Below, in pieces: positions 2,863 through 54,961 of a stretch of DNA of 64,000 bases. The position numbers and the translations under genes are program-made. The stretch is taken from assembly GCA_041662625.1 (NCBI GenBank), contig JBAZSB010000002.1, positions 85,497 to 149,496 of the forward strand. Direction: 5' to 3'. The notes beneath the pieces are model-generated. The model ran no database searches and had not been told where the DNA came from. It saw nothing but the letters and a program-made list of their open reading frames with translations. The DNA is from Patescibacteria group bacterium. GTDB lineage: Bacteria; Patescibacteriota; Patescibacteriia; Buchananbacterales; UBA6539. How positions within the stretch are numbered: position 1 is the stretch's first letter; the number at the start of each line of letters is the position of its first letter.

Positions 2863-3666
2863 TTGCTTAAAAATATGCTTAATCAAAAACAATTAACCGA
2901 ATTGGGATTCAGCCCTAAGGAAGCTAATGTTTATTTATCTCTATTAGAGCTAGGCCCTTCAACCGCTACGGAAATTGCCAGAAAGGCCAAAATTAACCGA
3001 ACTACCAGCTATGACATATTAGAGTCTTTAACCAGTGAAGGACTAGTTTATTTAATTGGTGAGACTAAAATCCAAAAATATGCTGCTGAAAATCCCCAAA
3101 AAGTAGTTAATTTTTTAGAAAATCGAATAAAAAAAACTGAGCAGCAATTAACAGCAGCCCACGATATCCTTCCCCAGCTATTTTCGATCTATAACACTAA
3201 AGAAAAACCTCGGGTAAAATTTTTTGAGGGCTTAGAAGGTATGAAAGAAGCTTTTGAAGATACTCTAAATGCTGAAAACGAAATATTAGCCTATGCCGTT
3301 GGTAATGATATGTTTAGTGCCTTTAATGAACAATATTTTCATGATTATTTTCAAAAGCGGGTAGCTAAAGACATATTTGTAAGGGTAATTGCCCCCGACG
3401 ATGAAGGAACAAGAAAGGTTATTGCTAATGATAAAAAAGAATTACGTACCACCCTTTTGGTACCAACTGATAAATTTTATTTTTCCGTCGAAACAAATAT
3501 CTATAATAACAAAATTCTAATTGTTTCCTGGAAAGAAAAATTCGCTGTAATTATTGAAAGTAAAGAAATTTCTGATGCCCAAAGAAAAACATTTGAATTG
3601 GCCTGGCTCGGGGCAAAATCGTTGGATATAAATAAAACCAGATACATACAGGCGCAAAAAATTTAG
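2863..3666 (+). CDS. TrmB-family HTH transcriptional regulator (paralog 2)
   Basis: 267 aa. LGFSPKEANVYLSLLELGPSTATEIARKAKINRTTSYDILESLTSEGLV is a TrmB-type HTH. The architecture and C-terminal domain resemble 537..1286. Confidence 0.7.
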   Translation: MLKNMLNQKQLTELGFSPKEANVYLSLLELGPSTATEIARKAKINRTTSYDILESLTSEGLVYLIGETKIQKYAAENPQKVVNFLENRIKKTEQQLTAAHDILPQLFSIYNTKEKPRVKFFEGLEGMKEAFEDTLNAENEILAYAVGNDMFSAFNEQYFHDYFQKRVAKDIFVRVIAPDDEGTRKVIANDKKELRTTLLVPTDKFYFSVETNIYNNKILIVSWKEKFAVIIESKEISDAQRKTFELAWLGAKSLDINKTRYIQAQKI

Positions 3667-4019
3667 AAAATACCTAAAATACCCCAAAAATAAACAAGTG
3701 AATTATCCCCAATCTTTGCTGCCAAAAGATGAAATTTTGGCTTTTTTTGTTTTACGACACTAATTTAGAACTAAATTTAGCGAATTATTAGACTAATTAA
3801 TTGTTTGTCAATAAATACTAACAAAAAATCACAAAAAGTTGCAATAAAAAACCTTAATTGAGTTTCTCTCTTAAAAATATATTGAATAATTAGCTTATTT
3901 TAGTCTAGTTCAGGCGTCGTTAAATACTTCCCAAAAAATGACTCCCTGCTCTTGACTTTTTTAAAAAATAGTATTAGAATAAGGTTACTTTTTTATCGAT
4001 AACGTTCTTTGCCATCATT

Positions 4020-4210
4020 CTTACCCTGTGCGCCTTGCCGGGTGCCACAGGGGCCCGTGCCTACCATGGGCACAAACGAGCTATCTGTTCTCTCCTCGAG
4101 AGACCAGAAACGCTCGCCTTCCGCGGGAACCAACGATCTTACCTCCACCTACAAAGCTTGCTTGGCGCAAGAGGGTCACGGGTACGATTTGCGGTTCCCT
4201 TATTTATTTC
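4020..4210. ncRNA. candidate structured RNA (unclassified): ~190-nt GC-rich island in AT-rich intergenic DNA
   Basis: About 58% GC against a ~30% GC flank. Several stable hairpins read directly (CCCTGTG..CACAGGG, GTGCC..GGCAC, GTTCTCTC..GAGAGACC, CTTGC..GCAAG). Only spurious overlapping ORFs with no RBS. Strand and family (SRP, 6S, other) could not be decided by eye. Confidence 0.3.
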
Positions 4211-4334
4211 CGTCAAAAGAATCACTTAAAACCAATAAAATTTACCTACTTTCCCCTACTTTTGACTTTTTTGGTAATAAACTGTATATTATAAAATATT
4301 CTGAATCAGTACCCCTCACTTTTAGGGGCCCTTA

Positions 4335-4629
4335 GCCCCTCACCTGAAAAGTTTTTATGTTTTATGTCTATATTCTAAAAAGTAAAAAAGATGGTAGTAT
4401 CTATGTTGGGTATACCAATGATTTAAAAAGAAGATTTTTAGAACATAATAATTTAAAAAGTAAATCAACAAAAAATAAGGCGCCTTTTGAGCTGATCTAT
4501 TATGAGGCCTATAAGGCAATGGCTGACGCCAAATATCGAGAAAATAACCTCAAAAGATTCGCTAAAGCCTATATTCAACTGAAAAGAAGGATTAAAAATA
4601 GCTTAATTTAAACTTTTCAGGTGAGGGGC
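4335..4629 (+). mobile_element. mini-element carrying a GIY-YIG ORF, bounded by perfect 20-bp terminal inverted repeats, inserted at the 5' end of tRNA-Ala
   Basis: GCCCCTCACCTGAAAAGTTT at 4335-4354 and its exact reverse complement AAACTTTTCAGGTGAGGGGC at 4610-4629. 11-bp direct repeat GGGGCCCTTAG at 4325-4335 and 4625-4635; the second copy is the 5' end of tRNA-Ala. Confidence 0.6.
4357..4611 (+). CDS. GIY-YIG nuclease family protein (small, ~84 aa)
   Basis: YVYILKSKKDGSIYVGYTNDLKRRFLEHN is the GIY-(10-11 aa)-YIG motif with the conserved Arg and Glu. Same size class as the second copy at 31038..31292. Confidence 0.85.
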   Translation: MFYVYILKSKKDGSIYVGYTNDLKRRFLEHNNLKSKSTKNKAPFELIYYEAYKAMADAKYRENNLKRFAKAYIQLKRRIKNSLI

Positions 4630-4702
4630 CCTTAGCTCAGTTGGCTAGAGCGCCTCCATGGCATGGAGGAGGCCAAGGGTTCAAATCCCTTAGGGTCCAC
4701 CA
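4626..4702 (+). tRNA. tRNA-Ala (anticodon GGC)
   Basis: Cloverleaf folded by hand: acceptor GGGCCCT/AGGGTCC with the G3:U70 Ala identity pair, D-arm GCTC/GAGC, anticodon stem CCTCC/GGAGG, loop ATGGCAT, T-arm AAGGG-TTCAAAT-CCCTT, encoded CCA. Confidence 0.85.
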
Positions 4703-4805
4703 TATAAACAATTAACTATTGGCAATTAACAGTTAACTCGTTTAGCTGTTTTTTGTTAAACAAATGATAGTTAATTGTTAAAGGTTAACTGTTAATTGTC
4801 GAATT

Positions 4806-4819
4806 GTTCCACGTGGAAC
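4806..4819. promoter_or_regulatory. parS-like 14-bp perfect palindrome GTTCCACGTGGAAC, plus a TTAAC-N-GTTAA palindrome array (4727-4737, 4771-4781, 4786-4796)
   Basis: Differs from the canonical chromosomal parS core GTTTCACGTGAAAC at one symmetric position. Lies about 100 bp beyond the 3' end of the ParB-like gene, between it and tRNA-Ala. Confidence 0.45.
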
Positions 4820-4916
4820 ATTTTTTTGTTATTAAAAAAAGAGCCGACATAAGCCTTATAAGCCCTGTGGCTCACTATAAAAAACTATAGATTACGCCTC
4901 CCTCCTGACTCTCCTC

Positions 4917-6113
4917 CTAAAATCTGGAGCTCTCCTTTGATCCGGAAATTCGCTTTGCCAAGCCGCCTAATTGAGTAGTTAGGGTACGAATTTGCGCCAG
5001 AGCATCATCGTGAATATCTGGGTCTTTACCGGCAAAACTGCTGCCAATAGCAGCTTCCTCACTTTGCAGGACCAGAACCAGACTACCAATTGCCGACATC
5101 ACTTCCCGGCGCCGTTCTTCAGCCACCCGAGCGGCGAGAACTTTGGGATCCTCCTGCCTTCTCTTGCCATCTGGGGCAGCATCAGGTTTTTTAGGCCGGG
5201 GATCGAGCTTTTTGAGTCGTTCTAGTAGCTTCCCGAGGTCTTCCAAAGATCTGGTTAGAACCCTGATAATAGTCTCAAAATCAGTGGTGGCATCCGAGGC
5301 TTTCGGAAAAATCGCTTTGAGTGTCACCACTGGAATATCAAGGGCTCGCTGGAGTGATGTTCCAACCCGCTCAACATGGCGGATCAGGCTACGGCGGACA
5401 TCTCTTGGCCGTGCTGGTTTAGCCGCGGCTGCTCCCTGCTGGCCAGCGACAATTGCCTTGACCTTTTCAACCGCCCGGCCAGTAGCCATCAGCATTACAC
5501 TGGTTGCCACCTTAGCTTGGTCAGCTGGAGGCAATTCGGCGATTTCCTTGGCAACACTAACCGGCAATTCACCTGAAATCACCCGCCGCTTAACGGCATC
5601 GGTAAGTTTCAGCAGGGCTAGCCGATCACGCAGCCAGGGTTCTGACTTCTGAAAGGTATCACAGACCTCAGTCCAGATAGCACCAAGGTCGAGCAATTCC
5701 TGGATGTTTCGAGCAGCTTCCAGTGGCGTATGCGGCAGGCGACCCCAATTACTGCCAATTGCCAGCATTTTCCTGCCTTTTCGGTCATTGACATCAATAT
5801 TCACGACCACCGCTTGAAATGGCCTCCCGTTGAGTTTACAGGATTCAAGGCGATGTTGGCCCTTGATTAACCCATAAGGGTGGCTGGAATCATCGGTTGG
5901 GATGACAATACCCGGCTCTTTCTGGCCATTCCGCTGAATGTTGGGAGCCAGATCAGTCTTGATATAGTCCCAGTTCAACCCGTCGCGGGGCTGTTCCAAA
6001 ACGACAATCAGATCGGTCGGAATACTTAGGACTTCCGAAACAACCTCTACTCCTGCTGGCAACCGAAATTTCGTACTGTCTCTCTCTGCTACTGCTGCGA
6101 CTTGTGCATGCAT
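4917..6113 (-). CDS. ParB-like nuclease domain protein (ParB/Srx fold), in a GC-rich island
   Basis: Start set at the Met preceded by AAAGGAG (6113). IVIPTDDSSHPYGLIKGQHRLESCKL is ParB N-terminal-domain-like (GxxxxHR motif). About 52% GC versus ~37% for the host. Confidence 0.6.
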   Translation of the reverse strand: MHAQVAAVAERDSTKFRLPAGVEVVSEVLSIPTDLIVVLEQPRDGLNWDYIKTDLAPNIQRNGQKEPGIVIPTDDSSHPYGLIKGQHRLESCKLNGRPFQAVVVNIDVNDRKGRKMLAIGSNWGRLPHTPLEAARNIQELLDLGAIWTEVCDTFQKSEPWLRDRLALLKLTDAVKRRVISGELPVSVAKEIAELPPADQAKVATSVMLMATGRAVEKVKAIVAGQQGAAAAKPARPRDVRRSLIRHVERVGTSLQRALDIPVVTLKAIFPKASDATTDFETIIRVLTRSLEDLGKLLERLKKLDPRPKKPDAAPDGKRRQEDPKVLAARVAEERRREVMSAIGSLVLVLQSEEAAIGSSFAGKDPDIHDDALAQIRTLTTQLGGLAKRISGSKESSRF

Positions 6114-6328
6114 AGCTAGATCTCCTTTTACACTGGTTTGTTTTCCTCCTCGATTTCCGATCAAGTCTGCCTAAAAATATGAATTCTTCATGATAGCAAA
6201 GAACAAATAAATACTAAAAGCATTTTATCATTTTAATTTCATTCCAACAAACCAATTAAACTAACAAAAAAGAGGGAGCAAGCAACTCGCCGCTACCCTC
6301 GAAAACCTTTGATCTAAAGACCCAAGTG

Positions 6329-6700
6329 CTACCCCCTCCATAGGCTCCGCAAACTCCGCAATCCTGGCAAAGACCAGAATATAGACGAGTGCCGACCGTT
6401 GGTCGGCTGGGAGGCAGGTTTGGCCAACTGTGTAGGCCGAGCTATCCGAAGAGCCGCAATAAGGCGGGCGTCACAGACTACCTCCTCAAATGGACAAACC
6501 TTGCGGAGTTGGTAGGGATTTATCGTCCTCAGGTTACCATCAGCTCCGAGCAACTGCACCATGGGATCAGCCATCCCCGGCCAGATTGTGACAAGTTTCA
6601 TCGGCCCGGCCCAAGCATCGCCATTGAACTTCGACTCACGCCGATAAACTATTGCCCCTACTGCCACCGTAGTGCCATCACCCAACTTCACTTGTTCCAT
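6329..6700 (-). CDS. hypothetical protein (GC-rich island)
   Basis: Start at the internal Met preceded by GGAGGG (7-nt spacer). No recognisable motif. Confidence 0.4.
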   Translation of the reverse strand: MEQVKLGDGTTVAVGAIVYRRESKFNGDAWAGPMKLVTIWPGMADPMVQLLGADGNLRTINPYQLRKVCPFEEVVCDARLIAALRIARPTQLAKPASQPTNGRHSSIFWSLPGLRSLRSLWRG

Positions 6701-6902
6701 TATCGATCCCTCCACGGTCGTACCGCCAATAAGACCCATGACTCTGACTTAGCAACTGGCTAAGCAGAGATACAGTCAAAATCCTAATATTTGATCGTAA
6801 TATTAAATAAGGTGTTTGTCAATCTTAATAAATTATAGCTAAAGATGTTCCCTGGGAAACAAAAAATCAGCCCTAGCTGGTTGGATTAAATCAAACTAAT
6901 TA

Positions 6903-7706
6903 TTACAAATTTTTCAAAAACGAGGCTGTATCTTTGGGATCAACAGTAATTTTTTTACATAACGGCCAGACTAATTCAAATTGGGATTTAATCAATTCCG
7001 TAAAATCGCGGCTGGTCACGGTGAAACCAAAACTTTCCTTTCTTGAAGAAATAAAAGCAACTTTATCGGCATAAGCCCATAAACCCATATTCCAAGTCAT
7101 GCCTTTGGGCGCTAAACGAATTTCGCGATAGAATTCTTTAGTAATACCTAGGAAAGGATATTGTTTAAATTTCACGGCTTTATCTGAAGGCCAAATAGTT
7201 CGCAAATAAATTTTTTTGCGAATTCTTTTTCTATTATTTTCCGCCAGCCAATCCGCGCCCAGTACCCCAATCATTTCGGAAATCGGCCAAATGACTAAAG
7301 TAGTAATATTTTCATACCACAAAATATCATTAACCGCGCGTCTGACTCCTTCTTGGCCGCTGTAAAATTTGATTTTCGGTTCCAAATAATCAGCTTGGGT
7401 AGAAAGTTTAGGAATAATTTCTTTAAGTTGTTTTTCCTGCTTTTGTAAATTAGAAATTTTATCATTAACTAAACGAGAAATATTTTTAACATCATCAACC
7501 CGGAATAATTTTTTATTTTCCTGATCAATCTCGGTGACTAAGCCTAAGCTGATTAAAATTTTTAAATTATCATAAACCGACGGCCGGGGAATATTGAGAT
7601 TTTCAGCAAGTTGTCTGGCGGAAGAAATGCCAATTTCCAAAAGGCGCAAATAAATTCGCGTCGCGGTTTCGGGGATGTTTAGGTTTTTGAGGATGTCTTG
7701 GAGCAT
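6903..7706 (-). CDS. TrmB-family HTH transcriptional regulator (paralog 3)
   Basis: 267 aa. ATRIYLRLLEIGISSARQLAENLNIPRPSVYDNLKILISLGLV HTH. Same length and layout as the other two paralogs. Confidence 0.65.
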   Translation of the reverse strand: MLQDILKNLNIPETATRIYLRLLEIGISSARQLAENLNIPRPSVYDNLKILISLGLVTEIDQENKKLFRVDDVKNISRLVNDKISNLQKQEKQLKEIIPKLSTQADYLEPKIKFYSGQEGVRRAVNDILWYENITTLVIWPISEMIGVLGADWLAENNRKRIRKKIYLRTIWPSDKAVKFKQYPFLGITKEFYREIRLAPKGMTWNMGLWAYADKVAFISSRKESFGFTVTSRDFTELIKSQFELVWPLCKKITVDPKDTASFLKNL

Positions 7707-7708
7707 TA

Positions 7709-7850
7709 ATGTAAATTACAAATCTCAAGTTCCAAATAAATTACAATTACCAAAATTTCAAATCACAAACCCCTTGAGATCAACGTTTGGAATTTTTAAT
7801 ATTGTGATTTGGAATTTGTTTGATATTTGTAATTTTGGATTTGGTGCTTT
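7709..7850. repeat. long imperfect inverted repeat (~60-bp arms of CAAAT/ATTTG-rich words); copy A of a dispersed hairpin repeat
   Basis: Left arm AAATTACAAATCTCAAGTTCCAAATAAATTACAATTACCAAAATTTCAAATCACAAAC mirrors the right arm GGAATTTTTAATATTGTGATTTGGAATTTGTTTGATATTTGTAATTTTGGATTTGGTGC. A second copy is at 55826-55972. Confidence 0.55.
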
Positions 7851-7945
7851 CTATGATAACGACTAGTAGTTTATAAATCCACTCTAACTATTACCACCTG
7901 AACCACACTTTCAAACTATCACATTTGTCGGTTTTCGTCAACAGA

Positions 7946-7974
7946 TTGACAGTTTTAACCTGCTATGTTAATTT
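7946..7974 (+). promoter_or_regulatory. promoter TTGACA-N17-TAATTT
   Basis: TTGACA 7946-7951, 17-nt spacer, TAATTT 7969-7974, upstream of the GC-rich ORF at 8048. Confidence 0.45.
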
Positions 7975-8047
7975 GAAGCGTTTACCGTGGCAGTAAACCT
8001 AGGGCGTGATAACCAGGTGTGCACCTGAAAAGCTAAGGAGGAGCGTC

Positions 8048-9118
8048 ATGCGAAACAACATAATTACGGTTTTGGTTTCAATGTTAGCAATAACGTCGGC
8101 CTGGGCCGAAGGAAAAACCGAGGCCAGGGACCCGACTAAACGGATCCCAATAATTAAGGTCGGTGACACGGCAACACTGGACTTCTGGGGATTTGGCCAA
8201 GGAGCGTTTGTCGAAGACGCTGAACCTGACGAATTCCAGTGGACCAATCTGAGGTTGTACGGCAACCTGGAGGGGAAGCAACTCGGACTCGGGTTTGTCC
8301 TGAACTTCGCCGACCTGCAAGAGCCAGAAGGTAATTGGCTGCGTGAGCTTTACGGTAAGTTCAAACTGACCGATACCCTGGAAACCCGCGCCGGCCTGAT
8401 CCTGACTTCGGTTGGTAATGGTGAGGCTTTCCCCGGACCGCCCAAAAACGAAACCGTACTTTTCCCCCGAAGCTTACAGTTTGGCCAATATGGCTATGGC
8501 CTTCAGCTTCGCTGGAAAACCGATTTCTGGTCAGTAGTGGCTGACATCACCGGTAATACGGCCTTGCCATTCGATGATCCAAACAAGTTCAAGGATCTCG
8601 AGTTCTCCGGCCGGGTCAAACGGATCTTTCGAAACCACGAGCGCGAACTGGGCTATCTGGGGGGAACCGTTCAATTGACTAAAGCTGTCAACCGATTTGG
8701 TCTCGACGGTCAAGGGCAGCCGACCAAGACGCTGACTCTGCGCGGTGGCGTGTTCTACTCTGACTACGCCAGTGAAAAGCAAAGCAACCAGCTTAGTGGT
8801 TTTGGTCTAGCCGCGTATCGACCAAAGTCTTGGTTCGAAGTCCACACGATGATCGAGGGCACGAAAGATTTCGCCAAGGAGTACCAAGACCTCCAAGAGA
8901 AGAAAGACAAGCAGGGGAATGTCATTCACGATGAGTGGGGGAATATCATTTACGAAGAGGTGACGCGGCGGACATCAGATGCGACCGAAATCAGTTGGAC
9001 CAACGGGGTACGCTTCTTTGGAAAAGATGATCATTGGTCGTTAACGCTAGACTACAAGACTGTGCTGGAGGGACAGCGGGAAGACCAAATCTCGTTACGA
9101 GTGCATATTCCGTTCTGA
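8048..9118 (+). CDS. secreted protein resembling an outer-membrane beta-barrel (signal peptide, C-terminal Phe)
   Basis: Start at the ATG 6 nt after AAGGAGG. N-terminus MRNNIITVLVSMLAITSAWA is a signal peptide. Alternating amphipathic segments, and the protein ends ...ISLRVHIPF with a terminal Phe as in Gram-negative beta-barrels. About 52% GC. Confidence 0.45.
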   Translation: MRNNIITVLVSMLAITSAWAEGKTEARDPTKRIPIIKVGDTATLDFWGFGQGAFVEDAEPDEFQWTNLRLYGNLEGKQLGLGFVLNFADLQEPEGNWLRELYGKFKLTDTLETRAGLILTSVGNGEAFPGPPKNETVLFPRSLQFGQYGYGLQLRWKTDFWSVVADITGNTALPFDDPNKFKDLEFSGRVKRIFRNHERELGYLGGTVQLTKAVNRFGLDGQGQPTKTLTLRGGVFYSDYASEKQSNQLSGFGLAAYRPKSWFEVHTMIEGTKDFAKEYQDLQEKKDKQGNVIHDEWGNIIYEEVTRRTSDATEISWTNGVRFFGKDDHWSLTLDYKTVLEGQREDQISLRVHIPF

Positions 9119-9149
9119 TTCCTCGGAATCCAGGAGAGGGTTACTAGCA

Positions 9150-9185
9150 GCGGCGCTTGCCTTTTGGTGAGCGCTCTTTTTTTAT
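9150..9185 (+). terminator. rho-independent terminator
   Basis: GCGCT..AGCGC stem followed by TCTTTTTTTA. Confidence 0.5.
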
Positions 9186-9301
9186 CTCTTATCCTCAATC
9201 TCCTTGTTAAACAAAACTGAAGCTGCTATAATTGCTAATGAAGGGGGTCGTCGATTAACTATTAAACTATTTAATATTAATTAACAGCTAATTTTAACTT
9301 T

Positions 9302-9820
9302 ATGACGCCATTACCTAATCAGGCGAGTATGCCCAAGCCAGCCGCACCCAAACCAGCTGGTAGTAAACCAAATGTTTGGCTGATTGTCAGTATTATTTTG
9401 GCAATCATTTTAGTTGTCGTTGTGGTTATGAACTATACTGCCAAGCAAGGCGGTCAAGATAAATCTTTAACGACAGTTTTATCAACCCAGGCGGCCGGCG
9501 ATAAATTACTGGATTTTGTTAATAAAATCTATGGCTCTCAATTGGGGGCAATGTCAGTTAAAGAGGTAGCGGAAGAAAGTGGTCTATACAAAGTAATCTT
9601 CAGCCTGACTGATCCGACTACCGGCCAACCAGCTGATCAACCAGCCTTTATTACCAAAGACGGTAAAAAATTCATTCCCCAGGCAGTTGATATCGCTGAA
9701 GCTTTAACTCAGTTCGACGCTTTACAACAGCAGCAACAGGCTGCCCCAACTGCCGGAACTCCAACACCAACACCTGAACCAACACCGACACCGGAGCCAG
9801 AAACTCCCCCAGCAGAATAA
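9302..9820 (+). CDS. membrane-anchored protein with Pro/Thr-rich C-terminal linker
   Basis: One TM helix (WLIVSIILAIILVVVVV), then a globular part, then the tail TPTPTPEPTPTPEPETPPAE. Confidence 0.5.
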   Translation: MTPLPNQASMPKPAAPKPAGSKPNVWLIVSIILAIILVVVVVMNYTAKQGGQDKSLTTVLSTQAAGDKLLDFVNKIYGSQLGAMSVKEVAEESGLYKVIFSLTDPTTGQPADQPAFITKDGKKFIPQAVDIAEALTQFDALQQQQQAAPTAGTPTPTPEPTPTPEPETPPAE

Positions 9821-9918
9821 TAAACAAAAAACTCAAAATAAAAACAACTCTGATTTTTCAGGGTTGTTTTTTTAATTAAAAAACCGAACACTTGACGGCA
9901 GATTATTCCAAGAATTTC

Positions 9919-9949
9919 TTGACAAAAAGAAAAATAATTAGTATTATAA
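9919..9949 (+). promoter_or_regulatory. near-consensus promoter TTGACA-N17-TATTAT(AAT)
   Basis: TTGACA 9919-9924; TATTATAAT 9942-9950. Confidence 0.55.
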
Positions 9950-10031
9950 TGAACTTGATCTTTAGCAATTTATACCATTTGGCAACAGATGTTTTGGCAA
10001 TACAGTCTAACGGTAAAGGGAGGAAAAGAGT

Positions 10032-10784
10032 ATGACCATAACGGTCGGGGAACAGCAGGTGCTTGACGCTTCTATTTCACCTGAGGTCGTAGTGTTGTAT
10101 CACAATGGTTCACGAGAGCCCTTTGGGATCATCAGGATTGAGCACCCTGAGACTATTCAAGCAGTTGACGGAAAGACACTCCAACATCTGCTTCGTGATA
10201 CCAATACGGATTGGCTCAGACTCCAGAGTGTTTCTCTTAGGCAAATTCGGGCGCGGCTCGGATTCGAGAAGTGCCTGAGAGCAGCTCGGGGTTTAGTGGA
10301 AACCATTATTGACACCACCGGTAGAGAGGGGGAATTCCAGCAAGCAGCCAGGCTGCTTGAGGACTACCTCCACCTTCCCAATTTGCGGGAAAGGTTGGAA
10401 AACATCCTCTGCTCGCCGACGACACCAATTGTGGTGAGTCTCGACGAAGTAATTAAGTCCATTGATCAGGACACAACGCCGATAGTCCATGAGTTACTCG
10501 TTGGAATTGAAGAATGCCGCAGTCAAAGTGGGACCATCAATTTGGCCTGGGGCACGCTTCCAGTACGGATTTTCGGCAGCCGGGAAAAACGGAAGTACTT
10601 GGAAACAGTTCTAACCCGACTCGGCGTTTTTCGCCGGCTGGCTCAAGGTCATGACCTACAAGCTATTTGTGACGGCTTACGCGCAAACAATCCAGAGTTG
10701 GCTGCGTTGCCAATCTTCGAGCAAGTGATGCGAAGCTGGCAGAGAGATCTACCTACGGGAACGACGGCAACGACGGCGCAGTAG
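10032..10784 (+). CDS. hypothetical protein (GC-rich operon, gene 1)
   Basis: RBS AAAGGGAGGAAAAGAGT-ATG. 250 aa, cytoplasmic, no motif recognised. Confidence 0.55.
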   Translation: MTITVGEQQVLDASISPEVVVLYHNGSREPFGIIRIEHPETIQAVDGKTLQHLLRDTNTDWLRLQSVSLRQIRARLGFEKCLRAARGLVETIIDTTGREGEFQQAARLLEDYLHLPNLRERLENILCSPTTPIVVSLDEVIKSIDQDTTPIVHELLVGIEECRSQSGTINLAWGTLPVRIFGSREKRKYLETVLTRLGVFRRLAQGHDLQAICDGLRANNPELAALPIFEQVMRSWQRDLPTGTTATTAQ

Positions 10785-10806
10785 ACAAGCGCCAGAAAGG
10801 AATGGT

Positions 10807-11415
10807 ATGAGAATCAATTGGATGGTTCTGGTAGCAACAGCGGCTTTCGTAATTGTGGAGATGGCGATCTCCGCATTGGGCCCAAAGACTGACTTCCCTT
10901 TGTGGAAACACGGGGGAATCTGGGGCGACCTGCTCCTATTCGCCGTGATCAACGCTGTCGTCTGGAATCACCTGCGCCTGCCCGGTCTCTGGGTAGTCGT
11001 GGTGATCCTGATAATCGCTGACACAGCGGCAATAGGAATGCACAAGATGTGGTTCGCCGGCCAGGAAGGCATGACCAGTGGGATTTGGCCGACTTGGCCG
11101 AATAACGGCTGCTGGGGCGGCATGAGCCCTGCTGGTTTCATGCACGTGGCTTTCATGACAACGCAGATCGCGATTCTGCTGCTGTTCGTGCTTTCACCCG
11201 CGCCACCTTCGGTCGTCTGGACCGCCGCCATCCTGCTGACAGCGTTCTGGCCGATCAGCGTCCTCCAGCCGTGCTGGTACATAACCAGCAAGTGGATTGA
11301 CGCGATGGCCATCACCAACTCAGCGATTATGGTGGTCGGCACCTGGGGAGCCTGCTGGGTCAAATTGGCCCGGCCGGAATGGATTAAGTTTGTAGTGAAG
11401 TTAACCAGAGGATAA
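10807..11415 (+). CDS. hypothetical Trp-rich integral membrane protein (GC-rich operon, gene 2)
   Basis: 202 aa, about 5 TM segments, ~57% GC. Confidence 0.5.
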   Translation: MRINWMVLVATAAFVIVEMAISALGPKTDFPLWKHGGIWGDLLLFAVINAVVWNHLRLPGLWVVVVILIIADTAAIGMHKMWFAGQEGMTSGIWPTWPNNGCWGGMSPAGFMHVAFMTTQIAILLLFVLSPAPPSVVWTAAILLTAFWPISVLQPCWYITSKWIDAMAITNSAIMVVGTWGACWVKLARPEWIKFVVKLTRG

Positions 11416-11429
11416 GAAGGAGATACCAG

Positions 11430-11672
11430 ATGGGACAAGACGGATTTACCTTCGACAAACTTATCGGCAAACGGTTCCGCTGCACCAAGACCATGCAGTG
11501 GATCCAAATCACAGCCGACGATAAGGACAAGGCCACTTCAGGAAATGACGGTCATCCTTACTGGGATGTGCCGTGTCCGGAACCGGGATGCGGTGGCTTT
11601 CACCGCTTCTGGCACAAGACCAACAACCACCGGCCGGGCAAAGCCGCACTGGCGCCAACGGCGGAAGCGTGA
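11430..11672 (+). CDS. small Cys/His-containing protein (GC-rich operon, gene 3)
   Basis: RBS AAGGAG 8 nt upstream. CPEPGCGGFHRFWH could be a small metal-binding motif. Confidence 0.4.
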   Translation: MGQDGFTFDKLIGKRFRCTKTMQWIQITADDKDKATSGNDGHPYWDVPCPEPGCGGFHRFWHKTNNHRPGKAALAPTAEA

Positions 11673-11912
11673 CCATGACCAGATGCCAAATTCAACGGTT
11701 CGCCGCCGGAGCTACAGCTTTCTTGAATGACCATGCCACCTGGCGGGCGCAACGCGGAAGAAGGCCATCAATGCCTTACATCAAACTCTGGGCAACCCTG
11801 AAAGCCACCCGGTCTACGTGGTACCGCCAGTAAAGGCAGCAGTGCCACTTCAACGGCAACGGCTAAACTAAGCCCAGTACACCTCGGAGGGGAAGGAGAG
11901 GAATTTATAATA

Positions 11913-11958
11913 AGAGCCCCAGCAGGACACCTTGTCCACTGGGCTCTTTTTCTTTTTA
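11913..11958 (+). terminator. rho-independent terminator ending the GC-rich operon
   Basis: GAGCCCCAG..CTGGGCTC stem followed by TTTTTCTTTTT. Confidence 0.6.
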
Positions 11959-11979
11959 CCTGAGGATAACAACCAAACT

Positions 11980-13482
11980 TTAACCTAAACTTTTCCGGAT
12001 TTTCCCCGATTCAATAATTTCTTTACTCAAAGGCTTTTTTGCCTGCCAAAGATAGTAAATATTGGAAGTGAGATTGCGATGGATAAAATCTGCATTAGTT
12101 TTGGGACCAAATTCCGTCTTAAAATGATTTTCTAAAATCTCAACATCAGTTTGAATCTGCTGCCAGACCCGCTGTTTTTTCGCCAATTGATTCAAATTTT
12201 CTTTATTAAGATAACGCCCGGCTAAAAAAATATCTTTTTTGAAATTGAGATAATATTTTTCTAATCTGATTCCCTTTTTACTCAAAGCCTGCAAGCCGCG
12301 GCCGGTACCGATAAACTCCGGCGGCACGCCCAAAGAATAAAGAATTGCCGTAAAGGGAATTGCCCGGGGCAGATGTCTTTTACCAATCAGGCGGGAATAA
12401 CCAAAAAGGCCGACGTGTAATTTGCGCTCCCGCCGCGACGGCACTTGCTCGGAAAGTTTATTGATTAAATCGGCCAACGGCTCAACGCTTCTTCGATAAA
12501 ACGGCTCAAACGTCCGACAAATTTCTTTGGCTTCCTGGAATTCTTTGGGGTTATAAATTTTAACTGGCGTTTTTGGTAATTTTGAATTCAAAATTTTGAT
12601 GGCCTGCTTAACTTTAGCCAGCGGAAAATCATAACGAAAAGCCGATTGAATATAAACTGTGCGCATCCCGGAATATTCTTTCAAGAAATCAGAAATTCTT
12701 TCCGGCGATAAACTGCCGCGGAAAGGCAGCGTGCCAACACCGATTGCCGGATAAACTTTTATCTTATGATCGCGGCCAAAACGATGATATTCTGATAAAG
12801 CAATTTTGCCTGCCACAACGGCCGGAACTAAGCCGGCATTAAGTGCCGGGTCACTGCGGGCAATATGCAACCTCAAATATTCCGGTTTTACCTTGTATTC
12901 TTTTTGATGTAAAACCAAATAGCGATCCAAAAGCTTGCGGCAGCCAATTAAAGTTTCCATTCGTTCCAAAAGCGGCAGAACGTTAAGGTAAGTAAAGCTA
13001 CAACGCTCATTAAAAAGCCGGCATTTAAACTTGGCCAGCTTGGTAAAAGTTTTTTGGATATAAATAATGTGTTCGGCCTTAATCGTCATTGGCAAAATCA
13101 CTTCAAAAAGCGGCGGATGATGAAATTTCAAATCCCGGGCAAAGCTATCAGCAGTCAGAATCCCCATTAATGCCCGCGTTAAGCCGTAACCTTTCTCCTG
13201 CCAGATATTAGGAATCCGAAAAGTCAAAAATTTATCCTTACCCAGCTGGTTAGTCTGGAAATATTGATGATAAGAATGAAACATTTTATCAACTACGGCT
13301 TCATCAACATATTTACCCTCCCAATCCCACATGAATTCCTGGCAATCTAAATCTTTGAAGGCGGAACAACATTCCAAAACCTCTTCATGGGTGGAAACAA
13401 AACCATCCCCATCTTTTTCCCAATAGGGGGCGCAGGCATTATCCGGATGTTGGGTGGCCATAGTGGCCGGTATTTGGCGCAT
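11980..13482 (-). CDS. ppcA: archaeal-type phosphoenolpyruvate carboxylase (PEPcase type 2)
   Basis: 500 aa. The N-terminus MRQIPATMATQHPDNA matches the conserved (M/S)TQHPDN start of archaeal-type PEPC, and the length fits. Confidence 0.75.
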   Translation of the reverse strand: MRQIPATMATQHPDNACAPYWEKDGDGFVSTHEEVLECCSAFKDLDCQEFMWDWEGKYVDEAVVDKMFHSYHQYFQTNQLGKDKFLTFRIPNIWQEKGYGLTRALMGILTADSFARDLKFHHPPLFEVILPMTIKAEHIIYIQKTFTKLAKFKCRLFNERCSFTYLNVLPLLERMETLIGCRKLLDRYLVLHQKEYKVKPEYLRLHIARSDPALNAGLVPAVVAGKIALSEYHRFGRDHKIKVYPAIGVGTLPFRGSLSPERISDFLKEYSGMRTVYIQSAFRYDFPLAKVKQAIKILNSKLPKTPVKIYNPKEFQEAKEICRTFEPFYRRSVEPLADLINKLSEQVPSRRERKLHVGLFGYSRLIGKRHLPRAIPFTAILYSLGVPPEFIGTGRGLQALSKKGIRLEKYYLNFKKDIFLAGRYLNKENLNQLAKKQRVWQQIQTDVEILENHFKTEFGPKTNADFIHRNLTSNIYYLWQAKKPLSKEIIESGKIRKSLG

Positions 13483-20878: not shown

Positions 20879-21012
20879 ATTTTACTGTTCTTTGACCAAA
20901 TTATTAATCTTGTTTGATCAGAACTGATTATAATTTTATTGTGGCCAGTTTTGGTCAAACAAGAGAAGTTGTGTCCAACAAACCCTACTAATGGTAGGGG
21001 GAGGGTGAAACA

Positions 21013-21549
21013 ATGAGTAAAGAGGTAAGCCCCAGAATCGTGATATGGATACTAGCGGCTATCGGGATTGGTTGCGCCGTCACGTTTATTCTCGCCCTGC
21101 GAGCCATTGTCCAACGGCCACCAGAGCCTGCCGTGACCGTGATCATTCCCGCCAACTCGGGCGCCAGCCAAGAAATGCCCCCGAAGCTCTTCTTCCGGGA
21201 AGGCTTTCCGACCCAAGAACCGGCGGTGGTCAAACTCGAGGTGCAGGATTACAAAACGGCCAACGACTCGCCCAAATACCAGGTGTCAATCTATGCTCGG
21301 CTGCGACGGGAAATCAAACCAAACCAGCCACCCCTGACACCAAGTTGTGACGTTGATGCTGATTCCGTGAGGAGTTGCGCGGCGGTCTTGAATAGCCCAA
21401 ATGAAGATGTGCCTGGCATCAAGTACGATGAAGGTTGGGTGTTCCTAGACACCTGCGATATCAACCAGGATTGCCAATGGGACATCCCGGTCCCGTTCGA
21501 CAAACAAATGATCCGGGAAGTTCGGGCCTATCTGGTCCGGCAACCGTAG
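21013..21549 (+). CDS. hypothetical membrane-anchored protein (GC-rich island)
   Basis: RBS GGGGGAGGG. N-terminal TM, four Cys in the C-terminal half. Confidence 0.5.
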   Translation: MSKEVSPRIVIWILAAIGIGCAVTFILALRAIVQRPPEPAVTVIIPANSGASQEMPPKLFFREGFPTQEPAVVKLEVQDYKTANDSPKYQVSIYARLRREIKPNQPPLTPSCDVDADSVRSCAAVLNSPNEDVPGIKYDEGWVFLDTCDINQDCQWDIPVPFDKQMIREVRAYLVRQP

Positions 21550-21567
21550 CTGGAAAGGAGCCAAGAA

Positions 21568-22008
21568 ATGACAACGACACTGATAGTTTGGTGCGCGGTG
21601 ATCGCGGTAATCATCCTTCTGACTTGGTTCGGCTTTAACCGCCGCGCCAAAGCCAACAAGGCTGATTCCCAACTTTTCGCAATCACCAACCTGCATGCCT
21701 GCAGCATCTCCACGGCAAGAGACCTGATGCCGATGTCAACGGAAGGTGTCTACGAATATTCGGCTGTACTGTCGTACCGGCTGCAAAGCTGGGCAGCGTT
21801 CTTCTTCGCCGCAACAGCGACTCTCGTAGCCATACTGTGTCTGCCTTTCGGCTGGTGGTATTTTCTCCCGGCCTGGATAGCAGCGATGACTATGCTCGTC
21901 AGCCTGATCTTCAGTGCACACTTCCTTTGGCGTGAATTCCTGCTGGATTACTCTGGCCGGATTACCGAAGGTGGCGGCATCAGACCGCCAATAACGCTGA
22001 CCGAGTAA
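21568..22008 (+). CDS. hypothetical integral membrane protein (GC-rich island)
   Basis: RBS GGAAAGGAG; 4 TM segments. Confidence 0.5.
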   Translation: MTTTLIVWCAVIAVIILLTWFGFNRRAKANKADSQLFAITNLHACSISTARDLMPMSTEGVYEYSAVLSYRLQSWAAFFFAATATLVAILCLPFGWWYFLPAWIAAMTMLVSLIFSAHFLWREFLLDYSGRITEGGGIRPPITLTE

Positions 22009-30923: not shown

Positions 30924-30946
30924 TTAGAAAATTTGATGCCATGATG

Positions 30947-31031
30947 GCGCCTTCGTCTAGTGGTTAGTGCCGATGTAAAATCGGCATCCCGATTCGCCGC
31001 ATCGGCGGCGACATCGGGAGACACCAGGTTT
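30947..31031 (+). pseudogene. partial duplicate of the tRNA-Glu 5' half (nt 1-22, then a 53-nt structured insert, then nt 24-34)
   Basis: GGCGCCTTCGTCTAGTGGTTAG and ACACCAGGTTT are identical to the intact tRNA-Glu at 31301. The insert TGCCGATGTAAAATCGGCATCCCGATTCGCCGCATCGGCGGCGACATCGGGAG folds into two hairpins. Confidence 0.6.
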
Positions 31032-31037
31032 CTATCT

Positions 31038-31292
31038 ATGTCTCACTTTTACATTCTAAAAACAAATAAACAGAGCTATTATATAGGCAGTACAGATAAT
31101 TTAGAAACTAGATTAAAATATCATCAAGGCGGTAGGGTAAAAAGCACTAAAGATAAATTGCCAATTGAACTAGTTTTTAAAGAATATTACAAAACAAGGG
31201 CCGAAGCGCAAAAAAAAGAATACAAGGTTAAGGGTTGGAAAAGTAAAAAAATGATTGAAAGATTAATTAAACTTGGCCCGCATCAAAAATAA
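31038..31292 (+). CDS. GIY-YIG nuclease family protein (small, ~84 aa), copy 2
   Basis: HFYILKTNKQSYYIGSTDNLETRLKYHQ is the GIY-YIG motif. The ORF-track N-extension (from 30960) lies over the pseudo-tRNA and is rejected. Confidence 0.85.
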   Translation: MSHFYILKTNKQSYYIGSTDNLETRLKYHQGGRVKSTKDKLPIELVFKEYYKTRAEAQKKEYKVKGWKSKKMIERLIKLGPHQK

Positions 31293-31300
31293 AATAATAT

Positions 31301-31375
31301 GGCGCCTTCGTCTAGTGGTTAGGACACCAGGTTTTCATCCTGGTAACAGGGGTCCGATTCCCCTAGGCGCTACCA
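31301..31375 (+). tRNA. tRNA-Glu (anticodon TTC)
   Basis: Hand-folded: acceptor GGCGCCT/AGGCGCT, D-loop AGTGGTTA, anticodon stem CCAGG/CCTGG with loop TTTTCAT, T-arm AGGGG-TCCGATT-CCCCT, encoded CCA. Confidence 0.85.
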
Positions 31376-32183: not shown

Positions 32184-32211
32184 AGACGTGGCTGTGCTTT
32201 CAGCGCTGTTC

Positions 32212-32368
32212 TTCCCCCTCACCCACGCCTTGTCATTGCGAGACCCGCGCTTCACTAAGCTAAGGGCGGGTCGAAGCAATCTCTTTGGCTGTGAGATTGC
32301 TTCGTCGCCTTGCCATCATCGCGACACTCCTCGCAATGACAATAGAAAAACGGAGGGAGAGGGGGAGC
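32212..32368. repeat. ~155-bp GC-rich palindromic mini-element (outer CCCCCTCACC / GAGGGAGAGGGGG ends, 13-bp TTGTCATTGCGAG inverted repeat, three internal hairpins)
   Basis: TTGTCATTGCGAG 32230-32242 pairs with CTCGCAATGACAA 32330-32342. Internal stems GACCCGC/GCGGGTC, GAAGCAATCTC/GAGATTGCTTC (11 bp) and GTCGC/GCGAC. Confidence 0.55.
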
Positions 32369-32442
32369 TAAAAATAAGCTTTTGGCAAAACTTAAGATAA
32401 AAGGGAAGTTAAGCAAGACGCTATACTTAAGTTTCCCCTCCC

Positions 32443-32480
32443 CCCTTGTGGGGGAGGGTTAGGGAGAGGGGGAAGCAAAG
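32443..32480. repeat. GC-rich hairpin element (CCCCTCCCCCC-TTGT-GGGGGAGGG-TTAG-GGAGAGGGGG); same family as 456-500
   Basis: Read directly. Its end GGGAGAGGGGGAAGC matches 32352-32367. Confidence 0.5.
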
Positions 32481-53719: not shown

Positions 53720-54961
53720 TTAAGATTTTTCCGTTTGGCTTAATTCAGCCGGAGATTCTAATTCGGTTTTTGGCGGGGCCAAAGCTTCTGATTTTAGTTC
53801 AGCCGAATCAACTTTTTTGGCCGGTTCTGATTTTTCCTTCAAGGCTTTCAGGCTTAAACCTAACCGATGATTAGTCGGCTCAATGGACAACACTTTGAAA
53901 TCCAAGGTATCTCCGGGCTTAGCGATCTCGCTGGTATCACTAATCGGTTTATCAGACAATTCAGAAATATGAGCTAAACCGTGAATATCCGGATCGAGCT
54001 CAACAAAAAGACCAAAAGGATTAGCTTTTAAAACCTTACCTTTCACGACCTGACCGACTTTATACTTCTCAGCCACATTCTTCCAAGGATCTTCCTTGAG
54101 TTTTTTCATGGAAAGAAAAATCTTAGAACCTTCAACATTGATAATTTCTGCTTTGATTTTATCACCAACCTTAACTAAGTCAGAAGGATTATCAATTCGC
54201 TGCCAAGCTAATTCCGAAATATGGACTAAACCTTCAAGTTTATCAGCGCCAAACTCGACAAAAACACCAAAGTCAGTCACGGCTGTAACTTTGCCACTAA
54301 CGGCATCGCCCACTTTATAACTGGCAATAACATCTTTTTGTTTTTCTTCCCAACCGGCCTTTTCCGATACAATTAATTTTTCTTCAGCTTCGTCCACATC
54401 AATCACTTTGACTTCAAAATCATGGCCGATGTAGCTTCTTAGTCGTTCCAAAATTCGATTTTTATCGCCACCCGGAACCCGCGGATAGTGTTCAGGCATC
54501 AATTGCGAAACCGGTAAAAAGCCAGGAATCCGGCCAACCCTAACCATTAAACCACCTTTATTCGCATCAGTAATTGTTGCTTTGACAATTGATTCTTTTT
54601 GTCTTAAGTCGGTTAAATTGTCCCAGGCCTTTTGGTGACCGGCAAAACGAAACGAAAGTTCCATCTCTCCGTTTTCGTTCTCCAGCTCAATTACCGTTGC
54701 TTCAACGTCATCACCTATTTTTAGACCCGAGTACTCATTTGATTCGTCATAAAATTCTCGGCCCCTCACCACACCGGTGGTAAAACCATCAATGTCTAAA
54801 CGAATTTCGGACCGAGAAATATCAATTATTTTGCCTTTGACCAAGTCACCAACTTTCGGAATCTTAATAAAATCCCCCTCAGCAAGGATTTTCTTAAACT
54901 GAGAGGATTGGTCTTTAGTCTTAATATCAGGCTCATCAAGTTTAGTGTCTTTTGCAGTCAT
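53720..54961 (-). CDS. rpsA: 30S ribosomal protein S1-like (4 S1 domains)
   Basis: Four consecutive S1 (OB) repeats (G.V..V..FG.FV....GL.H.SE pattern). Confidence 0.75.
   Translation of the reverse strand: MTAKDTKLDEPDIKTKDQSSQFKKILAEGDFIKIPKVGDLVKGKIIDISRSEIRLDIDGFTTGVVRGREFYDESNEYSGLKIGDDVEATVIELENENGEMELSFRFAGHQKAWDNLTDLRQKESIVKATITDANKGGLMVRVGRIPGFLPVSQLMPEHYPRVPGGDKNRILERLRSYIGHDFEVKVIDVDEAEEKLIVSEKAGWEEKQKDVIASYKVGDAVSGKVTAVTDFGVFVEFGADKLEGLVHISELAWQRIDNPSDLVKVGDKIKAEIINVEGSKIFLSMKKLKEDPWKNVAEKYKVGQVVKGKVLKANPFGLFVELDPDIHGLAHISELSDKPISDTSEIAKPGDTLDFKVLSIEPTNHRLGLSLKALKEKSEPAKKVDSAELKSEALAPPKTELESPAELSQTEKS

Follow-up and report, generated by a model that had tools for sequence, protein, structure and literature searches.

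A miniature inverted-repeat unit encoding a minimal GIY-YIG nuclease, inserted in a tRNA-Ala gene of a Patescibacteria bacterium, is a probable mobile element of stable-RNA genes

Insertions with GIY-YIG genes are already known from RNA genes of Patescibacteria (the Candidate Phyla Radiation, CPR). Open reading frames (ORFs) of this kind have been recorded in CPR rRNA inserts that are not introns, where they were judged not to be driven by homing, and most CPR rRNA inserts are located at the tips of stem–loops (PMC11270868). A study of introns in Patescibacteria tRNA genes mentions neither GIY-YIG proteins nor duplications (PMC13011429). Stand-alone Slx1-like GIY-YIG domains also occur in prokaryotes, where their role is unknown, and some of them are fused to tRNA methyltransferases (Dunin-Horkawicz et al., PMC1564403). 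Here, we describe a locus in which an 84-amino-acid (aa) GIY-YIG protein is encoded between perfect inverted repeats inside a tRNA-Ala gene. The locus is part of a stretch of 64,000 nucleotides (nt) from a Patescibacteria group bacterium (assembly GCA_041662625.1, contig JBAZSB010000002.1, positions 85,497–149,496 of the forward strand), which is called the window, and coordinates given without a locus name refer to it. A full-text literature search found no description of this architecture, nor any report of its palindromic tips, duplications, tRNA, transfer-messenger RNA (tmRNA) and RNase P targets, end mimicry, or ORF-less derivatives. We consider it likely that the feature in the window is a copy of a family of miniature autonomous mobile elements, the sole protein of which is a nuclease of the Slx1/UPF0213 type.

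The unit in the window is bounded on the left by the 20-base-pair (bp) repeat GCCCCTCACCTGAAAAGTTT (4335–4354), the exact reverse complement of which is at 4610–4629, and a perfect inverted repeat of this length cannot be chance. The 84-codon ORF (4357–4611, + strand) is located between the repeats, separated from the left one by two nucleotides and overlapping the right one by 2 nt, where the inner end of the repeat covers the stop codon. The tRNA-Ala(GGC) gene at 4626–4702 (+ strand), with a G3:U70 pair and an encoded CCA, was defined by ARAGORN and Rfam (66 bits). The sequence GGGGCCCTTAG is found at 4325–4335 and again at 4625–4635, and the full exact repeat is 13 nt long (AGGGGCCCTTAGC, 4324–4336 and 4624–4636). 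These observations confirm what an earlier reading of this DNA by a model, made from the letters alone and referred to below as the original prediction, had reported about the inverted repeats, the 84-aa ORF, and the duplicated 5′ end of the tRNA, of which the exact match proved longer than reported. The same reading was wrong about the position of a partial repeat, CCCCTCACTTTT, which is not at 4321–4332 but at 4312–4323. It was also inaccurate in placing the insertion exactly at the tRNA 5′ end; because four bases of the right repeat already belong to the tRNA, the insertion is within the tRNA gene and not at its edge. The working tRNA takes its positions 1–3 from the G-run of the right repeat, whose tip, GTGAGGGG (4621–4628), supplies the tRNA nucleotides G−1 and G1–G3. 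Since the G-run of the tip replaces positions 1–3, there is a complete tRNA downstream, rebuilt from the tip and the duplicated positions 4–10, and a 10-nt orphan upstream. This orphan of positions 1–10 is GGGCCCTTAG (4326–4335, + strand), and its positions 4–10 (CCCTTAG, 4329–4335) form the direct repeat that recurs at 4629–4635. Measured from C-run to G-run, the unit has 293 bp (4336–4628). The conserved left tip, CCCCTCAC (4336–4343), is present six times in the window, while 1.0 would be expected and six was reached in none of 100 shuffles; the inner arm varies by lineage.

The protein was compared with known families by sequence and by predicted structure. The window ORF matched the PF01541 profile with E = 7.8e-17 and 61.8 bits, above the cut-off of 22.6 bits, which agrees with its originally proposed GIY-YIG identity, and a second ORF of the window scored 53.3 bits. 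The residues Y5, Y16, G18, R26, and E62 were invariant in 28 sequences, while H30 and N31 were at least 90% conserved. The sequence matches in the PDB were the UPF0213 proteins 1zg2 (BH0048, 1e-12) and 1ywl (EF2693, 2e-10), Slx1 (1e-3), and I-TevI (0.03). The AlphaFold2 model, with a predicted local distance difference test (pLDDT) value of 93.7, had the order β-β-α-β-α, and a Foldseek search with this model returned UPF0213 first and then Slx1 (template modeling [TM] score 0.68, root mean square deviation 1.9 Å), while I-TevI and UvrC were also matched. All 84 aa belong to the catalytic domain, and there is no accessory domain. According to these data, the protein is a minimal Slx1/UPF0213-type nuclease domain, for which catalytic activity is predicted. 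As a minimal Slx1-type domain without a DNA-binding extension it is unlike homing endonucleases, and the homing-type (I-TevI/Seg) nuclease of the original prediction has to be replaced accordingly. Searches of the unit with Pfam and NCBIfam found only GIY-YIG and no recognized transposase (DDE, HUH, serine/tyrosine recombinase, or Cas1). The dN/dS values of the element ORFs were between 0.05 and 0.17, which means strong purifying selection.

More than 1000 close homologs of the protein were found, nearly all of about 84 aa, and the named ones come from Patescibacteria; the best 120 homologs listed are 65–90% identical. At E ≤ 1e-3 and 50% identity, the homologs from an exhaustive search fell into 7250 clusters. 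The comparative set consisted of 80 fetched genomic loci, and the anatomy was scored over 82 loci. In about 70 of these 82, an inverted repeat (median length 21 bp) closely encloses the ORF and often takes in the ATG and the stop codon, and the whole unit has about 290–300 bp. The tips are conserved throughout the family as CCCC(C/T)CAC...GTG(A/G)GGGG, also written 5′-CCCC(C)ACAC(C)...(G)GTGTGGGG(G)-3′, which in the tRNA lineage has the form CCCCTCAC...GTGAGGGG. Covariation of the inner arms (positions 9–18) was computed directly, as a MAFFT alignment of arm pairs had shifted register; 88% of these positions were paired within loci versus 37% (maximum 44%) with shuffled partners. The elements of different genomes are 83–88% similar, and this similarity ends at the tips. 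This is apparently an undescribed, large family of miniature elements in the stable-RNA genes of Patescibacteria, and the three features that had been predicted at the window locus, namely a discrete inverted-repeat unit, a GIY-YIG ORF, and a repeat resembling a target-site duplication, recur at dozens of independent loci.

To measure the duplications, the element boundaries were set at the C-run and the G-run in 55 loci, and the flanks were compared with 2000 shuffled pairings. An exact flanking direct repeat of at least 4 nt was present at 23 of the 55 loci, versus a mean of 1.4 and a maximum of 7 after shuffling, and TTTA, TTAT, ATAA, TTGA, TAAA, and TATGA were typical. The duplication is 4 nt long in most lineages, although lengths of 5 and 7–8 nt are also found, and it is 7 nt in the tRNA lineage of the window. 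The repeat of this lineage corresponds to tRNA positions 4–10, while reading the flanks by eye gave positions 4–7 at L019 and L081, and the orphan consists of the flanking repeat preceded by the target's own GGG. The orphan fits the tRNA of its own locus (Ala, Lys, Val, or Ile) in 19 of 20 comparable loci, and the orphan sequences differ with the local tRNA (GGGCCCTTAG, GGGCCGGTAG, GGGCGGTTAG, GGGCACGTAG, and others). For example, L133, whose ORF is 86% identical to that of the window, has G7 instead of the T7 of the window, in the orphan as well as in the tRNA. Exact, locus-specific orphans of at least 8 nt were found for 24 of 34 tRNAs with an adjacent GIY-YIG ORF versus 2 of 31 without it. 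In L077 (977–1330, − strand), an ORF-less insert lies between two copies of the first 15 nt of tRNA-Gln and a part of its leader, with the upstream copy about 270 nt away. Insertions in CPR tRNA genes may leave orphan 5′ pieces as a scar more generally, beyond this family.

The targets of the family include ends and hairpins of stable RNAs. The tRNA genes with an element in the 5′ region are those for Ala, Val, Lys, and Ile. The 3′ ends of tRNA-His genes are hit in both orientations, with TAGG/CCTA duplications, and the left tip CACCCA restores the end of the tRNA there; one tRNA-Phe and one tRNA-Ile are further targets of this kind. The 5′ end of tmRNA is also targeted, and its Rfam match begins in the G-run of the right tip. 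In L016 Rfam matched a full-length RNase P RNA (250 bits) with a 291-nt insert in the P9 hairpin, while at four other loci the element is directly 5′ of the conserved P4 sequence AGGAAAGUCC of RNase P RNA, a place that was read by eye, against the Rfam consensus, as the P3 hairpin. Among rRNA genes, 16S (L024; at the tip of helix 17 by reading of the flanks) and 23S (L044) contain elements. Targets outside RNA genes are TTATCCACA sites, which resemble DnaA boxes, and AT-rich 4-mers, and these also have duplications. Insertion rebuilds the interrupted end of the RNA genes, in which the C-run and G-run tips substitute for the helix end of the host RNA. The ORF is in the sense orientation in all 27 unique cases at tRNA 5′ ends and in 9 of 9 cases in RNase P, tmRNA, and rRNA genes, while tRNA 3′ ends, which require no read-through, have four sense and three antisense ORFs. 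Because the tips are symmetric, the sense bias points to selection for expression from host promoters.

Some individual loci are worth describing here. With an element in the P9 loop of a complete RNase P RNA (L016, 1398–2050), one may ask if RNAs of this kind function intact or in pieces. One closely related lineage (L042, L045, L073, L040, and L047) is found repeatedly at the DnaA-box-like site TTAT|CCACA with TTAT/ATAA duplications, and two of its copies are 12 kb apart on the same contig. A general palindromic target of the form GGGG-N4-CCCC was considered, since it is seen at L037, L045, L062, and in the tRNA lineage, but it is absent from the overall flank composition and was rejected.

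Several loci contain more than one copy. Tandem copies were found in L012 (100% identical) and L132 (same architecture), and each copy has its own orphan. In L027, a copy with the ORF at tRNA-Ala(CGC) is accompanied by two ORF-less units of 72–75 bp stacked before tRNA-Ala(GGC), and the copies have identical tips of 12 nt and 9 nt, CCCCTCACTTGG and CCAAGTGAG; at the same position of the tRNA, L007 and L011 have a unit that consists of the hairpin alone. The data thus showed a discrete unit at many unrelated sites, with short target duplications, tandem identical copies, and ORF-less derivatives with identical tips. In an approximate tree of the ORFs, the tRNA-His, TTATCCACA, and tRNA-5′ clades are site-specific lineages, and within the tRNA-5′ clade the Ala-GGC, Ala-TGC, Val, Lys, and Ile targets are interleaved, which argues for repeated target switching with a new local duplication each time. 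In L129 (620–2000), an array of tRNA-Ile, GIY-YIG ORF, tRNA-Val, GIY-YIG ORF, tRNA-Ala, and a third GIY-YIG-like ORF was observed, in which the first ORF overlaps the start of tRNA-Val and the third is called as a fusion with pseudouridine synthase. The use of L129 and L131 as a filled and empty pair was rejected; they diverge at a GC-rich repeat, which is most likely an assembly or recombination breakpoint.

To see how the insert could behave in a transcript, the RNA of positions 4297–4705 was folded. The minimum free energy (MFE) fold contains a 20-bp long-range helix, and the orphan GGGCCCU pairs with the 3′ acceptor strand of the tRNA (z = −3.5), because the helix sequesters G1–C4 of the real tRNA. 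Given the duplication, such an alternative fold is inevitable, so that it may be with or without biological significance. A stem of about 21 bp has the size of an RNase III substrate, which by analogy with intervening sequences suggests a similar processing by RNase III. On the other hand, an unbiased count of stem mismatches gave 22 G·T versus 21 A·C among 1304 positions, and so no signature of selection on the sense RNA; an excess of G·T in a first count, in which the scoring favored wobble pairs, vanished in this recount. The originally suggested role of the repeats as RNA structure is therefore physically plausible in view of the 20-bp helix, but it is not accompanied by an excess of G·T pairs. 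Rfam searches found tRNA only, both at the gathering threshold and, over 3650–4950, at E ≤ 1. A group I intron was rejected, as there is no Rfam intron match at E ≤ 1, no room for the core, and the insertion is outside the anticodon loop.

These data can be arranged in the following scheme for a mobile element that encodes its own mobility enzyme. The unit would have entered tRNA-Ala(GGC) after position 10, with duplication of positions 4–10. The nuclease could recognize the tips, also in trans, as well as tip-like sequences in the target, and make staggered breaks, after which host polymerase and ligase would complete the insertion. The element itself would be promoterless and expressed from the promoter of the host RNA gene, which would explain the strict sense orientation. 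In the transcript, the helix of about 20 bp would fold the insert out of the precursor and insulate the host RNA; it may then be cleaved by RNase III, and RNase P would release the tRNA. Survival of insertions would be biased to sites where the tips mimic the helix end of a stable RNA. The ORF has stayed intact in essentially every unit, under strong purifying selection, which speaks for a role as the mobility factor of the element itself, and the unknown mobilizing partner of the original prediction is not required by the data. Only as a tentative proposal, which we would not yet call probable, can these elements be regarded as a new superfamily of prokaryotic DNA transposons, in which a sole 84-aa Slx1-like GIY-YIG nuclease acts on its own palindromic ends. 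With about 290 bp, such elements would be the smallest autonomous mobile elements known; they would persist in the ultra-reduced CPR genomes, use stable-RNA genes as safe harbors and promoters, and rebuild the host RNA by helix-end mimicry.

Several points speak against autonomous mobility of this kind. We know of no precedent for a GIY-YIG protein that performs transposition, and 84 aa is very small for the recognition of both ends and a target. No duplication was detectable in 17 of the 55 loci, and its varying length is unusual for one transposase. The orphans stay perfect though the synonymous divergence of related elements is near saturation, and this preservation could fit frequent re-insertion and functional constraint at the RNA level equally well. 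The lineage-specific targets, with their similarity to the tips, also fit homing or microhomology-mediated repair. RNase III processing and dependence on host promoters are inferred. In addition, neither an empty site nor a filled/empty polymorphism was recovered; among 40 metagenome loci obtained via the upstream TrmB-like gene, in which the similarity to the window ended just after TrmB, none contained tRNA-Ala or the GIY-YIG ORF.

The most serious alternative, which we nevertheless regard as rather unlikely, is a free-standing homing cassette similar to the T4 Seg genes ("intronless homing"), which would cut element-free alleles, for example in incoming DNA, and be copied by repair, so that the inverted repeats would be only an insulator in RNA or DNA and the direct repeats by-products of microhomology repair. 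The membership in the GIY-YIG superfamily, the strong site specificity of the tRNA-His, TTATCCACA, and tRNA-5′ lineages, and the resemblance between tips and neighboring target sequence agree with this explanation, as does the choice of conserved RNA genes, which is typical for classical homing and has a precedent in T4 SegB within a tRNA cluster (PMC2330249). However, the protein has no DNA-binding extension (84 aa versus about 220–250 aa for Seg and I-TevI), its closest relatives are Slx1 and UPF0213 and not I-TevI, and the left-side homology available for homing would be no more than 10 nt. Homing endonuclease genes do not have terminal inverted repeats, 4-nt duplications, or ORF-less copies with the same tips, and the usual logic of homing immunity is absent, since the target is regenerated and further units are found inserted in tandem. 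It is quite improbable that the orphan and the long-range helix form an alternative pre-tRNA architecture, similar to an intervening sequence (IVS) or tmRNA, with the protein as a domesticated RNA- or tRNA-processing factor. The MFE fold described above, the 21-bp median stem of RNase III substrate size, the strict sense orientation in transcribed RNA genes, and the perfect orphans despite saturated synonymous divergence all speak for such a device. The lone orphan mismatch (L006, C4 to T) would even retain a G·U pair, and the known fusions of prokaryotic Slx1-like domains to tRNA methyltransferases (PMC1564403) fit as well. This RNA-level explanation is difficult to reconcile with both orientations at tRNA 3′ ends, with the duplications at non-RNA sites (TTATCCACA and AT-rich 4-mers), and with the lack of an excess of G·U over A·C in the stems (22 vs. 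21); the downstream tRNA is complete without splicing, and the tandem and ORF-less copies indicate amplification at the DNA level.

Mobilization in trans by a conventional transposase, with the GIY-YIG gene as passenger cargo, seems still less credible to us. Terminal inverted repeats with a 4-nt duplication are classic for DDE transposons, and mobility or amplification of the ORF-less copies takes place without an ORF of their own. This explanation does not account for a cargo that stays intact, uniform in size, and under purifying selection in hundreds of units across the phylum, in CPR genomes that are small, and no transposase gene was noticed beside any of the about 90 loci; moreover, the repeats directly adjoin the start and stop codons or overlap them, which leaves no space for anything else. 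The explanation that nothing is mobile here, with the repeats as ancestral tRNA leader and the ORF as an ordinary neighbor gene, has hardly any probability left. It could draw on the failure to recover an empty site, but it is contradicted by the comparative data, in which RNase P RNA, 16S and 23S rRNA, the tmRNA 5′ end, tRNA 3′ ends (both orientations), and sites outside RNA genes all host the same unit, with homology that stops at the tips, highly significant duplications, and tandem identical copies. A mobile element moved by its own Slx1/UPF0213-type nuclease is thus the explanation that we prefer.

The surroundings of the unit in the window contain several further features. A sigma-70-like promoter, TTGACT-17-TATATT with 10 of 12 matches, is located upstream of the orphan (4262–4290, + strand), and its assignment is by similarity of sequence. 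It is presumably the original tRNA-Ala promoter, which now drives the orphan, the element, and the tRNA, and no promoter-like site was found between the ORF and tRNA-Ala in the window. A terminator-like hairpin followed by a T-run (4805–4820, + strand) is the likely end of the transcription unit. Between promoter and orphan, and extending into the latter, a small hairpin, CCCCT-CACTTTT-AGGGG (4312–4328, + strand), opens with the left-tip motif CCCCTCAC, and a similar CCCCT-att-GGGG is found upstream of the orphan in L009; the hairpin may, speculatively, be the relic of an earlier tandem copy that has collapsed. Further upstream (3952–4215), a promoter-like TTGACT-17-TAGAAT (3952–3980) is followed by a GC-rich stretch of about 180 nt (~4024–4205), which on the + strand contains four strong hairpins (z = −5.2, versus −1.95 on the − strand) and has no Rfam match at E ≤ 1. 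This stretch is a candidate for an unannotated structured RNA just upstream of the tRNA-Ala unit. On the 3′ side, GTTAAC/GTTAAT-like repeats directly follow tRNA-Ala (4710–4800). They are followed by a region of much higher G+C content (up to 53–55%, versus 31–40% upstream), which starts from a ParB/HTH-like gene (4917–6164, − strand), and further high-GC blocks are at 8001–9000, 10001–12000, and 21001–22000; the region 4703–12000 may be an island integrated at the 3′ side of the tRNA.

The second GIY-YIG ORF of the window (31038–31292), 41% identical to the first, precedes tRNA-Glu (31301–31375). The original prediction had noted the same order of ORF and tRNA at this locus, which is correct, but the architecture is different, and the locus (30944–31375) has no bracketing inverted repeat. 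Instead, a second copy of tRNA-Glu positions 1–22 (30946–30967) and 23–34 (31020–31031) is found upstream, with a 52-nt module of two GC-rich hairpins (30968–31019) between the two pieces. The same design was found in four of five homologous loci (L123, L124, L126, and L128), with a hairpin module of 40–50 nt, while L127 has a degenerate version, in which the D-loop piece and the first hairpin are missing. The 5′ half matches the downstream tRNA-Glu wherever it is readable, the hairpin stems covary (GCCGAT/ATCGGC versus CCCGAT/ATCGGG), and in four of the five loci the ORF enters the tRNA and stops at the TAG of the D-arm. This is a related but distinct architecture, for which a "duplication" of 34–38 nt, Campbell-type integration of a circle with a tRNA fragment, and an intron relic are possibilities.

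It had also been predicted that the ends of the unit are shared with ORF-less elements elsewhere in the window. Copies with identical ends do exist in related genomes (L027, L007, and L011), but the other CCCCTCAC sites of the window (493, 32215, and 54762) are not demonstrably related. The first two are part of different GC-rich palindromic repeats with motifs of the CCCCTC/GAGGGG type (455–500 and 32210–32470; for example CTCCCCTCGCCCCGTCTCAAACGGGGAGAGGGG...GGGGTGAGGGG and CCCCCTCACCC...tgtcattgcgag...ctcgcaatgaca...GGAGGGAGAGGGGGAG), which have the octamer CCCCTCAC in common with the element but no ORF, no tRNA, and a different structure, while the site at 54762 has no hairpin or repeat partner. 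The segment 63273–63397, located 45 nt upstream of tRNA-Arg, was likewise rejected as an ORF-less relative. It is bounded by CCCCGCACCAATTCC and GGAATTTAGTGCGGGG, which resemble the CCCCGCACC variants of the family tips, but no remnant of the GIY-YIG ORF could be seen in it, and the right arm is at the same time a terminator-like hairpin with a T-run, which makes any relationship uncertain.

If the nuclease is indeed the mobility enzyme, the few protein folds behind DNA transposition would be extended by GIY-YIG, a new lower size limit would apply to autonomous mobile elements, and the enigmatic UPF0213/YhbQ family would acquire a function that can be put to the test. Part of the unusual insertion load in the stable-RNA genes of CPR bacteria, where insertions distort the annotation and phylogeny of rRNA, tRNA, and RNase P, would be accounted for as well. 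The proposed "safe-harbor" strategy, in which the parasite restores the interrupted RNA end with its tips and takes its expression from the host promoter, would be of interest in itself, and a tiny nuclease that recognizes short palindromic ends could be of interest as a tool.

The comparison with known systems shows where the element agrees with each of them and where it differs. The UPF0213/YhbQ and stand-alone Slx1-like proteins share with it the minimal GIY-YIG domain of about 85–100 aa and the catalytic Tyr, Tyr, Arg, and Glu, and they are its best matches in sequence and fold. UPF0213 genes are annotated as ordinary chromosomal genes of unknown function, while Slx1 is a structure-specific repair nuclease that works with Slx4, and in this comparison, made by description, none of them is described within inverted repeats with target duplications or in RNA genes. 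The T4 genes SegA–G, with SegB in a tRNA cluster, and I-TevI resemble the element as selfish GIY-YIG genes at conserved RNA genes with site-specific lineages. In contrast to them, it has no DNA-binding domain but has terminal inverted repeats, duplications, ORF-less derivatives, and tandem insertions, and it regenerates its target rather than destroying it. Insertion sequences (IS) and miniature inverted-repeat transposable elements have in common with it the terminal inverted repeats, target duplications, several sites per genome, non-autonomous copies with identical ends, and end-like insertion sites. Unlike them, the element is without a DDE, HUH, serine, or tyrosine transposase, and its inner arms covary instead of being conserved. 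The smallest known autonomous IS has about 700 bp, and the 293-bp unit is less than half of this size. The IVS of 23S rRNA and the CPR rRNA "insertion sequences" (Brown et al. 2015; Tsurumaki et al. 2024, PMC11270868) also form helices at hairpin tips of stable RNAs, sometimes with an ORF. This likeness is seen at RNase P P9 and in 16S and 23S rRNA, and L024 and L044 are cases of such GIY-YIG rRNA inserts, whereas the insert of the window is located in the 5′ region of a tRNA. Group I introns of Patescibacteria tRNA genes (PMC13011429) are likewise mobile insertions in CPR tRNA genes, but the element has no ribozyme core, it is inserted at positions 7–10 and not in the anticodon loop, and the tRNA is restored by duplication rather than by splicing.

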